In this document: positions 1 through 3,182 of the stretch, in pieces
How the letters are laid out: each line of letters begins with the position of its first letter
Numbering within the stretch: the first letter of the stretch is position 1
From: a virus
Taxonomy: Duplodnaviria; Heunggongvirae; Uroviricota; Caudoviricetes
Length of the DNA: 4,445 nt
IMG/VR virus record: IMGVR_UViG_2579778609_000006
Reading direction: 5' to 3' (one strand)
The notes under the pieces: generated by a model
What the model was told of the DNA's origin: nothing
Seen by the model: the letters and a program-made list of their open reading frames with translations, nothing else
The model's database searches: none
Program-made: the position numbers and the translations under genes

Positions 1-314
1 GCAATTTTGAGAATAAAGTTACGGTAACTTTAGCGTTACGGGACAAAAAACGCTTTGACGGTGAAATTTTTGACCTGGACATCTCGCTGGACCGTGTTGA
101 AGGTGCCGCGCTGGAGTTTTATGAGGCAGCAGCCAGAATGAGCATCAGACAGGTCTTCCTGGATGTTGCTGCCGGGTTATGTGAAGGGGATGAGCAGTCG
201 CCGGAAAAGCGCCCCGTAATTTTAGAGGCGCAGAATGTATGGATAACCTACAAAGGAAAGCTACCGGGAAGAATTACTGGTTCTCTGAAGACTCCTCCGG
301 AATCACAACCTTAA
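1..314 (+). CDS. Hypothetical protein, C-terminal 104 codons (5' end lies upstream of the window); hydrophilic, not holin-like; tentatively YdfR/DUF1327-like
   Basis: Open frame with codons phased from position 3 runs uninterrupted to TAA at 312-314 (translation NFENKVTVTLALRDKKRFDGEIFDLDISLDRVEGAALEFYEAAARMSIRQVFLDVAAGLCEGDEQSPEKRPVILEAQNVWITYKGKLPGRITGSLKTPPESQP). Same strand as, and 63 bp upstream of, the endolysin gene. Absent from the ORF track only because its start codon lies outside the window. No transmembrane-like hydrophobic segments, so not a holin. The family assignment is a recollection of the gene between essQ and rrrQ in E. coli Qin prophage, not verified. Confidence 0.55.
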   Translation, partial: NFENKVTVTLALRDKKRFDGEIFDLDISLDRVEGAALEFYEAAARMSIRQVFLDVAAGLCEGDEQSPEKRPVILEAQNVWITYKGKLPGRITGSLKTPPESQP

Positions 315-377
315 GTCACTGACCGGAACAGATAAACCTGTCCGTGGGCAGAAACCGATAAATCCTGATAAATATCC

Positions 378-911
378 ATGAACGCAAAAATCAGATACGG
401 CCTGTCGGCTGCCGTTCTGGCACTGATTGCCGTCGGTGCGCCCGCGCCTGATATTCTCGACCAGTTTCTGGATGAAAAAGAAGGTAACCACACAACGGCA
501 TACCGCGATGGGTCCGGCATCTGGACCATCTGTCGGGGTGCCACGATGGTGGATGGAAAACCCGTTTTTCCCGGTATGAAACTGTCGAAGGAAAAATGCG
601 ACCAGGTCAACGCCATTGAGCGTGATAAGGCGCTGGCATGGGTGGAGCGCAATATTAAAGTACTACTGACCGAACCACAAAAAGCGGGTATAGCGTCATT
701 CTGTCCCTATAACATTGGCCCCGGTAAGTGTTTCCCGTCGACGTTTTATAAGCGGCTGAATGCCGGTGATCGTAAGGGCGCATGCGAGGCGATTCGCTGG
801 TGGATAAAAGATGGTGGGCGCGATTGCCGCATACGTTCAAATAACTGCTATGGACAGGTTATTCGTCGTGACCAGGAAAGCGCATTAGCCTGTTGGGGGA
901 TAGAGCAGTGA
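378..911 (+). CDS. R: SAR (signal-anchor-release) endolysin, phage lysozyme of the T4-lysozyme-like / P21 R21 type (177 aa)
   Basis: ATG at 378, TGA at 909-911. N-terminal weakly hydrophobic Gly/Ala-rich segment ([18 protein letters not shown], residues 7-24) typical of SAR domains, followed by the catalytic-triad spacing E35-x8-D44-x5-T50 ([16 protein letters not shown]) characteristic of R21-type lysozymes. Sits directly upstream of Rz/Rz1. It is not the lambda R transglycosylase. Confidence 0.9.
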
Positions 912-1369
912 GCAGAGTCGCCGCGATTATTTATGCTTTGGTTATCTGCATCATCGTCTGCCTGTCGTGGGCGGTCAATCATTACCGTGATAACGCCATC
1001 GCCTACAAAGAACAGCGTGATAAAAAAGTCAGTGAGCTGAAGCAGTCGATCGCCACCATCGCTGACATGCAGCAGCGTCAGCGTGATGTTGCTGCACTCG
1101 ATGCAAAGTACTCGAGAGAATTAGCCAATGCGAAAGCTGAAAATGAAACTCTGCGCGCTGATGTTGCCGCTGGTCGTCGTCGGTTGCACATCAAAGCAGT
1201 CTGTCAGTCAGTGCGTGAAGCCACCACCGCCTCCGGCGTGGATAATGCAACCAGCCCCCGACTGGCAGACACCGCTGAACGGGATTATTTCACCCTCAGA
1301 GAGAGGCTGATCACTATGCAAAAACAACTGGAAGGAACCCAGAAGTATATTAATGAGCAGTGCAGATAG
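908..1369 (+). CDS. Rz: Rz i-spanin (inner-membrane spanin subunit), 153 aa
   Basis: Translation from GTG at 908 gives [29 protein letters not shown]...[13 protein letters not shown], near-identical to my recollection of lambda Rz (identical C-terminal half). N-terminal TM segment then coiled-coil-like region. The GTG start overlaps the endolysin stop (GTGA at 908-911). The ORF track's 893 start is a TTG in the same frame; 908 is preferred because it matches the lambda Rz N-terminus. Confidence 0.9.
1128..1310 (+). CDS. Rz1: Rz1 o-spanin (outer-membrane lipoprotein spanin subunit), 60 aa, nested in the +1 frame of Rz
   Basis: ATG at 1128; [60 protein letters not shown]. Lipobox LVVVGC with Cys20, a penta-proline stretch, and complete embedding within Rz, as in lambda Rz1. 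Confidence 0.9.
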
Positions 1370-1372
1370 AGC

Positions 1373-1390
1373 TGCCCATATCGATGGGCA
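1373..1390. repeat. Short inverted repeat / hairpin (7-bp stem TGCCCAT/ATGGGCA, 4-nt loop) in the 31-bp gap between the convergent Rz and bor genes
   Basis: Read directly: tgcccat-atcg-atgggca. No clear U-tract on either strand, so terminator function is doubtful; confidence refers to function, the repeat itself is present. Confidence 0.3.
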
Positions 1391-1400
1391 ACTCATGCAA

Positions 1401-1694
1401 TTATTGTGAGCAATACACACGCGCTTCCAGTGGAGTATAAATGCCTAAAGTAATAAAACCGAGAAATCCATTTACGAATGTTTGCTGGGTTTCTGTTTTA
1501 ACAACATTTTCTGCGCCGCCACAAATTTTGGCTGCATCAACAGTTTTCTCCTGTCCAATTCCCGAAACGAAGAAATGATGGGTGATGGTTTCCTTTGGTG
1601 TTACTGCTGTCGGTTTGTTTCCAACAGTAAACGTCTGTTGAGCACATCCTGTAATAAGCATTGCCAGAGCGGCAGAAAACAACATTTTTTTCAT
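1401..1694 (-). CDS. bor: Bor outer-membrane lipoprotein (serum-resistance moron), 97 aa
   Basis: Minus-strand ATG at 1694 (AGGA Shine-Dalgarno 8-11 nt upstream), stop at 1401-1403. Translation MKKMLFSAALAMLITGCAQQTFTVGNKPTAVTPKETITHHFFVSGIGQEKTVDAAKICGGAENVVKTETQQTFVNGFLGFITLGIYTPLEARVYCSQ has lipobox LITGC and is near-identical to my recollection of lambda Bor. The ORF-track start at 1742 adds 16 codons in frame; the shorter start matches Bor and has the RBS. AT-rich relative to neighbouring genes. Confidence 0.9.
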   Translation of the reverse strand: MKKMLFSAALAMLITGCAQQTFTVGNKPTAVTPKETITHHFFVSGIGQEKTVDAAKICGGAENVVKTETQQTFVNGFLGFITLGIYTPLEARVYCSQ

Positions 1695-1891
1695 CTTATT
1701 ATCCTGCATTGTTAAAAACGGCAGAATCCTATGTGACAACAATTAAACGATAGTTAAATGGATTGATGAAAATTAAAACTATATAGGTGGATGCTCAGCC
1801 TATTGGAGGAGGGGGGCACTCAGAATCCTGTGGAATGAAATAAACCGCTCTTTCTGTCCATTACCCTTTTAGCTGCGCTGTATCGTCGCCG

Positions 1892-1956
1892 TATTCCCGC
1901 ATTAACCATGACCGTAGCCCGACGGGGAATTCCTTCTGCGTGAGTGTGCGGGAATA
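1892..1956. repeat. Perfect 10-bp inverted repeat (TATTCCCGCA at 1892-1901 / TGCGGGAATA at 1947-1956) with a 45-bp spacer, in ORF-free DNA
   Basis: Read directly from the sequence; the spacer contains the palindrome GGAATTCC and a CCCGACGGG mini-palindrome. A 10-bp inverted repeat within 60 bp is only marginally unexpected by chance in 4.4 kb (rough expectation ~0.25). Function unknown. Confidence 0.4.
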
Positions 1957-2053
1957 ATCAAAAACGATGCACACCGGGTTTTACTGTGCTGACAGACGCA
2001 GGGTTACCCTCATAGTCGCTTTTCCGGTGCGATGGTGGAAGAAACCGGGATGT

Positions 2054-2248
2054 TTATTCATCATCACTCTGGATTGATGTATATGCTCTCTTTTCTGACG
2101 TTAGTCTCCGACGGCAGGCTTCAATGACCCAGGCTGAGAAATTCCCAGACCCTTTTTGCTCAAGAGCGATGTTAATTTGTTCAATCATTTGGTTAGGAAA
2201 GCGGATGTTGCGGGTTGTTGTTCTGCGGGTTCTGTTCTTAGTTGACAT
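2054..2248 (-). CDS. Small basic protein, YlcI/YnfO-like (DUF3950), 64 aa; possible ribbon-helix-helix DNA-binding fold
   Basis: Minus-strand ATG at 2248, TAA at 2054-2056. Translation MSTKNRTRRTTTRNIRFPNQMIEQINIALEQKGSGNFSAWVIEACRRRLTSEKRAYTSIQSDDE has a basic N-terminal arm followed by a short strand-helix-helix-like segment. The family assignment is from memory of E. coli prophage small proteins, not verified. Confidence 0.6.
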   Translation of the reverse strand: MSTKNRTRRTTTRNIRFPNQMIEQINIALEQKGSGNFSAWVIEACRRRLTSEKRAYTSIQSDDE

Positions 2249-2442: not shown

Positions 2443-2464
2443 TTACGGGGCGGCGACCTCGCGG
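2443..2464. other. cosN: terminase nicking site with the lambda 12-nt cohesive end GGGCGGCGACCT at 2448-2459
   Basis: Sequence ...ccgacaggttacg|GGGCGGCGACCT|cgcgggttttcgctatttatg... matches the joined right and left ends of mature lambda DNA as I recall them. Position is immediately upstream of cosB and Nu1, as in lambda. Confidence 0.85.
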
Positions 2465-2636: not shown

Positions 2637-3182
2637 ATGGAAGTCAACAAAAAGCAGCTGGCTGACATTTTCGGTGCGAGTATCCGTACCATTCAGAACT
2701 GGCAGGAACAGGGAATGCCCGTTCTGCGAGGCGGTGGCAAGGGTAATGAGGTGCTTTATGACTCTGCCGCCGTCATAAAATGGTATGCCGAAAGGGATGC
2801 TGAAATTGAGAACGAAAAGCTGCGCCGGGAAGTTGAAGAACTGCGGCAGGCCAGCGAGACAGATCTCCAGCCAGGGACTATTGAGTACGAACGCCATCGA
2901 CTTACGCGTGCGCAGGCCGACGCACAGGAACTGAAGAATGCCAGAGACTCCGCTGAAGTGGTGGAAACCGCATTCTGTACTTTCGTGCTGTCGCGGATCG
3001 CAGGTGAAATTGCCAGTATTCTCGACGGGATCCCCCTGTCGGTGCAGCGGCGTTTTCCGGAACTGGAAAACCGACATGTTGATTTCCTGAAACGGGATAT
3101 CATCAAAGCCATGAACAAAGCAGCCGCGCTGGATGAACTGATACCGGGGTTGCTGAGTGAATATATCGAACAGTCAGGTTAA
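2637..3182 (+). CDS. Nu1: Terminase small subunit gpNu1 (181 aa)
   Basis: ATG at 2637, TAA at 3180-3182. MEVNKKQLADIFGASIRTIQNWQEQGMPVLRGGGKGNEV... is near-identical to my recollection of lambda Nu1, including the N-terminal winged-HTH region and the GGGKG motif (K35). Lies immediately downstream of cosB. Confidence 0.95.
   Translation: MEVNKKQLADIFGASIRTIQNWQEQGMPVLRGGGKGNEVLYDSAAVIKWYAERDAEIENEKLRREVEELRQASETDLQPGTIEYERHRLTRAQADAQELKNARDSAEVVETAFCTFVLSRIAGEIASILDGIPLSVQRRFPELENRHVDFLKRDIIKAMNKAAALDELIPGLLSEYIEQSG

Follow-up and report, generated by a model that had tools for sequence, protein, structure and literature searches.

A ydfR-family (DUF1327) gene between the holin and endolysin genes of a lambda-like Escherichia coli prophage

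Introduction

What is encoded directly upstream of the endolysin gene in the tailed-phage sequence IMGVR_UViG_2579778609_000006 (Caudoviricetes), where a holin would be expected, and what might the product do there? The question concerns positions 1-377 of a stretch of 4,445 nucleotides (nt) of this record, which is called the window here. With near certainty, the open frame in this position is a ydfR-family (DUF1327) gene and belongs to the late lysis cassette of a lambda-like prophage of Escherichia coli. The gene, its family and its slot between holin and endolysin are already known and are annotated in thousands of genomes, E. coli K-12 included. It is nevertheless among the commonest uncharacterised genes of E. 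coli prophages and is also present in phages converting for Shiga toxin (Stx) 1 and 2c. Its operon is the one that controls lysis and, in Stx phages, the release of toxin as well, and the only partner reported for its product is RNase E. As to function, we favour, at a probability of about 0.35, a non-essential cytoplasmic accessory protein made late together with the holin, the N-domain of which may contact RNase E, in its catalytic half, and perhaps RNA.

The frame at the left edge is the 3' part of ydfR

Frame 3 of the + strand is free of stop codons from window position 3 to 311, where it encodes 103 residues, and closes with a TAA at 312-314. The five remaining frames of window 1-377 carry 3-11 stops each, the longest open run being 46 codons, and the chance expectation for 104 stop-free codons is ~0.007. 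An earlier note on this DNA, made from the sequence alone, had given the frame at least 104 residues; the long open frame stands, the count does not, since 104 includes the stop codon. Its gap of 63 bp before the endolysin agrees with the stop codon just given and an endolysin start at 378. The region is divided as follows.

1..182, + strand: N-terminal core of ydfR, codons 14-73 of 116, supported by DUF1327, the AlphaFold2 model and the ratio of non-synonymous to synonymous substitution rates (dN/dS)
183..314, + strand: variable C-terminal tail of ydfR, codons 74-116 and the TAA (312-314), with low predicted local distance difference test (pLDDT) scores and breaks in homology
315..377, + strand: spacer of 63 nt between the TAA of ydfR and the ATG of the endolysin gene R

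For window 1-1400, many E. coli chromosomes show 100% identity and induced E. coli prophages 99.7%, and the 13 codons of ydfR missing from the window are found directly upstream in the identical genomes. In the matching locus L001 the full gene measures 351 nt and its ATG lies 39 nt to the left of window position 1, such that the window encodes residues 14-116 of a 116-residue protein, or the 3' 89% of the gene. The start codon is provided with a GGAG Shine-Dalgarno sequence, so the frame is not closed off upstream. The whole window is matched at 99.8% by strain MS6198 and others. The MS6198 prophage looks intact, and its order is Q antiterminator gene, tRNAs, S, ydfR, R, Rz/Rz1, iss(bor), ylcI, cos and Nu1/A, followed by genes for a head and tail of the lambda type. 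S, which lies outside the window, encodes a class II holin of 71 residues (PF04971, 'P21 holin S', E=9e-33) with a dual-start-like N-terminus, MDQMEK, and ends 4 nt before the ydfR ATG.

Full-length YdfR matches the Pfam family DUF1327 (PF07041) with 142.4 bits (cut-off 25 bits; E=5.3e-42) over profile positions 1-92 of 93. It matches phrog_406/2091, PHROGs of unknown function, at E ~1e-68 (phrog_406 E=1.7e-67) and is 99% identical to a protein cluster named 'YdfR family protein', the name that RefSeq also uses in the 100%-identical genomes. An NCBIfam search gave no match, the PADLOC-DB defence profiles gave 0 families at E<=1, and the Pfam search gave no match to DUF2730 at E<=0.01. Nor does any holin family profile in Pfam match YdfR: DUF1327 is the sole match, and that to PF04971 belongs to the neighbouring 71-residue gene. 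The product has a grand average of hydropathy (GRAVY) of -0.36, and its maximal 19-residue Kyte-Doolittle mean is 1.03, in a segment containing R and D, where the usual threshold for a transmembrane helix is ~1.6; the same measure gives 1.70 for the upstream holin and 1.87 for the endolysin N-terminus. The pI is 5.2, and the product is a 13-kDa acidic, soluble protein for which a cytoplasmic location is predicted.

These results uphold the earlier note in describing a hydrophilic product without a transmembrane segment that is neither holin nor pinholin, and the full-length protein likewise has no transmembrane helix and no holin match. The note's tentative pointer to a DUF1327-type gene, ydfR, in the Qin prophage and its placing of the holin further upstream, outside the window, were both correct, because the order in K-12 Qin is essQ-ydfR-rrrQ and the class II holin gene does stand upstream. 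Its statement that the gene has no known function is essentially right, the exception being a 2026 paper on K-12 YdfR and the N-terminal half of RNase E (PMC13232886).

Might the frame be a chance opening or a dead remnant, with no functional gene behind it? The window by itself contains only a 5'-truncated frame and the YdfR tail is predicted at low confidence, both of which would suit that idea. It is, however, already refuted: the Pfam match has E=5e-42, dN/dS lies far below 1 in the N-domain and in the tail, all matching genomes hold a complete open reading frame with ATG and Shine-Dalgarno sequence, and tagged K-12 YdfR accumulates as a stable protein (PMC13232886).

A conserved N-domain followed by interchangeable tails

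The conserved core of YdfR comprises residues 1-73, after which the tails are interchangeable. In an alignment of 24 sequences including that of K-12, residues R44, E46, G47, A48, L50, E51, F52, Y53 and E54 are invariant or nearly so, and YdfR of the window has the family core motif R-x-E-G-A-x-L-E-F-Y-E and a beta-beta-beta-helix arrangement, in a model of moderate confidence. The AlphaFold2 model, built on a 39-sequence alignment, places strands at residues 5-14, 18-27 and 34-43, followed by a long helix from 50 to 73. Block means of pLDDT are 60-84 for residues 1-70, whereas nearly all of 72-116 scores <50; the tail is probably flexible. Comparison with diverged alleles gives dN/dS of 0.25-0.35 for codons 1-72 and 0.10-0.47 for codons 73-112. 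By this measure the N-domain and the tail are both under purifying selection. Searches with YdfR by Foldseek against BFVD and the PDB gave nothing at E<=0.001, and a sequence profile search of the PDB gave only noise at E=1.3.

Members of the family have lengths of 72 (phage Evi), 103 (K-12), 104, 114, 116 (window), 176, 183, 263 and 268 residues, and in phage Evi the N-domain is a free-standing protein of 72 residues. The C-terminal extensions of the longer members contain no Pfam domain and match only PHROGs of unknown function. When window 169-368 was compared with loci L003, L005, L006, L081, L097 and L098, DNA homology was interrupted at the following points.

K-12 Qin: homology ends at window 169 and resumes at 368
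PhiR12_5: homology ends at window 213 and resumes at 353
mEp460: homology ends at window 215 and resumes at 362
183-residue form: homology ends at window 299 and resumes at 351

Homology thus breaks within the tail and resumes shortly before R, which identifies the stretch from the N-domain to R as a slot for mosaic cargo. In other phages this slot holds alternative tails, extra C-terminal domains or reverse-strand open reading frames (L006 2958-3218; L098 1744-2040).

A gene of Escherichia prophages with a fixed position

The YdfR family comprises 319 clusters at 90% identity in a set of 5.8 billion proteins and has 63 matches among 1.84 billion representatives at 50% identity, nearly all of them fragments from Escherichia. 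Two very long proteins, P0159 (1,560 residues) and P0162 (3,128 residues), appeared as relatives at E ~1e-9 to 1e-8 and were rejected as spurious, both being highly repetitive with scores that sum weak repeat matches. Carriers of ydfR among 185,579 species-representative genomes belong to Escherichia only (coli, ruysiae and albertii). Two contigs labelled as metagenome-assembled genomes of Veillonella parvula (L092) and of Bacillota (L094) hold a Qin-like holin-ydfR-lysozyme order with an N-domain 73-78% identical by tblastn, and are most likely Escherichia contamination of the bins.

DNA of the ydfR N-domain is present in ~80% of complete E. coli genomes (4,343/5,426), at 8,534 places and with <=9 copies per genome; the class II holin occurs at 13,417 places in the 5,426 genomes. 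In the phage collection ydfR is found in 101 records, all of E. coli lambdoids, which include H-19B, BP-4795, mEp460 and many Stx1a- and Stx2c-converting phages. At 93 out of 93 loci the ydfR ATG lies 4 nt (3 nt in one locus) past the stop of a class II holin gene, the holin alleles being 74-100% identical, and a lysozyme gene follows ydfR at -4 to +452 nt. The most diverged phage ydfR genes, those of BP-4795, mEp460, PhiR12_5, Stx1_499 and Evi, keep this holin-ydfR-lysozyme slot. Since the cassettes of 933W and DLP12 are without ydfR, the gene is optional and accessory.

Expression with the holin

The Shine-Dalgarno sequence of ydfR, GGAG, lies inside the 3' end of S, 9 nt before the ATG. A consensus scan of locus L007 (8400-10800), which is crude and makes a weak negative, detected neither a promoter on the + strand nor a terminator from S to R. 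With neither at hand, ydfR probably shares the Q-dependent late message with S and R, and we infer that its translation goes together with that of the holin. The earlier note had offered three candidate roles, a lysis-timing factor, a SAR-endolysin regulator and a moron. As the stretch from holin to endolysin showed no promoter-like or terminator-like site, the label 'moron', for a gene with promoter and/or terminator of its own, fits poorly, and this candidate was set aside as unsupported by the same crude scan. A terminator-like hairpin with a 12-bp stem and a T run precedes the holin gene by ~40 nt and is not part of the window (L007 8677-8705); expression of S-ydfR-R would require Q-modified polymerase to read through it.

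An ATG placed 4 nt past the S stop, together with a GGAG within S, means that ydfR occupies the S-coupled translation slot that R holds in 933W. With ydfR present, 400 nt separate R from the S stop, and R lacks a recognisable Shine-Dalgarno sequence, no core of >=4 nt being found within 20 nt of its ATG (window 348-377). The presence of ydfR would therefore alter the initiation of R translation. Through S-coupled translation YdfR would appear late in the lytic cycle, at the same time as the holin. An RNA element in the 63-nt spacer was considered and rejected, as its folding energy is not significant (z=0.33) and an Rfam scan of the window gave no match.

Possible functions of YdfR

A literature search on DUF1327 and ydfR yielded a single functional paper of relevance, besides a few entries in screens. 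In that study of the K-12 protein (Göpel et al., RNA Biol 2026; PMC13232886), a bacterial two-hybrid screen that used RNase G as bait yielded residues 1-72 of YdfR three times, and this fragment, in a long-linker clone, scored with Rng, with Rne1-597 and with full-length Rne. Rne1-598-FLAG co-eluted with Strep-YdfR from cell lysates, and the Strep-YdfR eluates held DNase-resistant nucleic acid (PMC13232886). RNase E binding may extend to YdfR of the window, since the two proteins share 80% identity and 95% similarity over the interacting residues. The N-domain would bind host RNase E in the N-terminal, catalytic half of the enzyme, and perhaps RNA too, and would tune RNA processing or decay late in infection, standing outside the structural machinery of holin, endolysin and spanin.

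Several points weigh against this reading. The full-length short-linker T25-YdfR fusion scored with Rne1-597 only, and direct binding that resists nuclease was demonstrated for YegJ, not for YdfR (PMC13232886). As there is no nuclease-treated in vitro pull-down for YdfR, bridging by RNA is possible, and the authors themselves consider that a contaminant may carry the co-purified RNA. Over-production of YdfR altered few transcripts and left growth unaffected (PMC13232886). The acidic pI of the protein is not typical of an RNA binder, the functional data are confined to the K-12 orthologue outside a phage context, and the absolutely fixed slot beside the pinholin equally fits a role related to lysis. 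In a bolder and improbable form of the RNase E reading, YdfR would be a modulator of the enzyme produced by the late operon in fixed ratio with the pinholin, which binds the catalytic half of membrane-bound RNase E and so alters the stability or processing of the S-R-Rz or whole late transcript, its mosaic tail diversifying the specificity for partner or RNA. If that were true, RNA decay would feed into the timing of lysis in most lambdoid prophages of E. coli, Stx1 and Stx2c phages included.

The fixed slot could instead mark a lysis regulator, the main alternative, in which case YdfR would be a cytoplasmic modulator of pinholin or of SAR (signal-anchor-release) endolysin release, made stoichiometrically with S by translational coupling. 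It might time lysis much as an antiholin does, on the model of the cytoplasmic T4 antiholin RIII, or be a soluble counterpart of Mu releasin. We regard either variant, like the proposal in general, as rather unlikely. The class II holin-ydfR-lysozyme order is invariant at the 93 loci and in all diverged phage examples, ydfR stands in no other context among the loci examined, the 4-nt coupled junction is kept across holin alleles, and Mu gp25 sets a precedent for control of a SAR endolysin by a protein other than a holin (PMC9239132). On the other hand, 933W, with the same holin family and a 177-residue endolysin type, and DLP12 do without ydfR. The S/R/Rz set of phage 21, moreover, suffices for lysis. 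Across the 93 loci, co-variation of YdfR with holin or endolysin alleles was sought as a sign of physical interaction and none was seen: one N-domain allele pairs with holins 77-100% identical and endolysins 90-100% identical, so that YdfR does not follow the alleles of S or R. YdfR also lacks the membrane anchor that releasin requires (PMC9239132), and when YdfR was over-produced in K-12, a strain with essQ-rrrQ, neither growth nor lysis showed a phenotype (PMC13232886). The fixed synteny is equally explained by a single origin in a family of one genus.

A benefit to the lysogen, or a selfish passenger, is a further and likewise doubtful explanation, in which YdfR has no lytic role and either confers a conditional advantage under stress, cold or antibiotic, or is simply locked between essential lysis genes. 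It would suit the abundance of the gene in E. coli genomes (4,343 out of 5,426, <=9 copies), which extends to the defective Qin prophage, as well as the mosaic cargo slot that reaches from the N-domain to R. In a K-12 screen ydfR over-expression raised the streptomycin minimum inhibitory concentration 3-fold (PMC12924614), and both cold-stress induction of the Qin cluster and a ydfR hit in the Paradis-Bleau envelope-integrity screen are cited in PMC13232886. There is also a ydfR entry in a sigma-S run-off array. However, uninduced K-12 gives almost no ydfR RNA-seq reads (PMC13232886) and neither a promoter nor a terminator belonging to the gene itself was found, which casts doubt on expression in the lysogen. 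The purifying selection acting on the N-domain and the tight coupling of ydfR to S favour a function exerted when the late operon is on, and the envelope phenotype of the Keio mutant might stem from polarity of the kan cassette on rrrQ, because ydfR lies directly upstream of this lysozyme gene. Far less probable still is a counter-defence or exclusion factor, in which small, acidic YdfR would bind and thereby inhibit an enzyme of the host or of a competitor phage and RNase E is the true target or by-catch. Engagement of RNase E by a late accessory protein remains the reading that we prefer.

The lysis cassette downstream of ydfR and the neighbouring genes

The cassette continues on the + strand past the spacer.

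378..911, + strand: endolysin R, 177 residues (PF00959 Phage_lysozyme, E=1.5e-23; RefSeq 'lysozyme'/rrrQ)
908..1369, + strand: Rz i-spanin (PF03245 Phage_lysis, E=1.8e-49; RefSeq 'lysis protein'/rzoD)
1128-1310, + strand: Rz1 o-spanin lipoprotein, within Rz in another frame (lipobox LVVVGC)

The hydropathy maximum of R given above, 1.87, falls at residues 9-27, a weakly hydrophobic segment rich in Gly and Ala, and from this N-terminal segment the endolysin appears to be of the SAR type. Rz starts with the GTG at 908, which overlaps the R stop. As judged from the genes, Rz and Rz1 form a standard embedded two-component spanin and complete the lysis cassette.

Directly after Rz lies an iss/bor lipoprotein gene on the - strand (window 1401-1694; 97 residues, MKKMLFSAALAMLITGC...), annotated in the matching genomes as 'increased serum survival lipoprotein Iss'. 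An open reading frame of the YlcI/YnfO (DUF3950) family (64 residues, window 2054-2248, - strand) stands between iss and cos, and window 1743-2053 beside it is free of annotated genes. The 12-nt sequence GGGCGGCGACCT, which we take to be the lambda cohesive-end (cosN) sequence, has an exact copy at window 2448-2459, 178 nt upstream of a Nu1-like gene (2637-3182); shuffling gives an expectation of 0 copies. From this exact copy upstream of the Nu1-like gene, the prophage seems to have retained a cos site of the lambda type. E. coli ATCC 43886 (locus L001) shares 99.9% identity with window 1-1809, and a mosaic boundary lies at ~1809, past which ATCC 43886 has an HNH endonuclease gene and a P27-type terminase and the window has ylcI, cos and lambda-type Nu1/A. 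One lysis module is thus joined to two different packaging modules at this boundary.

Comparison with known systems

YdfR of K-12 (b1555, P76160), encoded in the cryptic prophage Qin, belongs to the same Pfam family as YdfR of the window and has the same order of essQ (holin), ydfR and rrrQ (lysozyme), with the 4-nt gap past the holin stop also kept (loci L091 and L093). The two proteins are 80% identical and 95% similar over residues 1-74, whereas the K-12 tail is unrelated to that of the window after about residue 69. The K-12 gene encodes 103 residues and overlaps the start of rrrQ with its stop, by 4 nt, in contrast to the 116 residues and 63-nt spacer found here. ORF47 of BP-4795 (114 residues) occupies the same S-ydfR-R slot and has the same architecture of N-domain and 'EKRPIILEAQ...GSLKTPP' tail, but its N-domain is only 54% identical, with synonymous divergence (dS) saturated at ~1.7, and the BP-4795 cassette has ant between R and Rz. 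H-19B gives a tblastn match to YdfR at 63% identity, as a sequence match alone. The Pfam, PHROG, NCBIfam, PADLOC, protein-representative and PDB profile searches related YdfR to nothing outside DUF1327.

Phage 933W resembles the window in its holin family, 177-residue endolysin type, Rz/Rz1 and bor but has no ydfR, and its R starts 4 nt past the S stop (L096 4040-4055), using the GGAG inside the 3' end of the holin gene. DLP12 has the same holin family and again no ydfR, and its essD overlaps rrrD. The gene contents of 933W and DLP12 show ydfR to be dispensable for the basic pinholin and SAR-endolysin pathway. Mu gp25, or 'releasin', is likewise a non-holin, non-enzymatic protein that is encoded with a SAR endolysin and acts from the cytoplasmic side (PMC9239132). 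It combines an N-terminal transmembrane anchor with DUF2730, whereas YdfR has no hydrophobic segment and DUF1327 only.

For engagement of RNase E, the preferred reading, the comparison lies with virulent phages. T4 Srd, T7 gp0.7 and phiKZ Dip are small phage proteins that reportedly bind or modify RNase E and alter mRNA decay, and Srd is said to bind the N-terminal half of the enzyme. These three are early products of virulent phages, whereas ydfR is a late gene of temperate ones.
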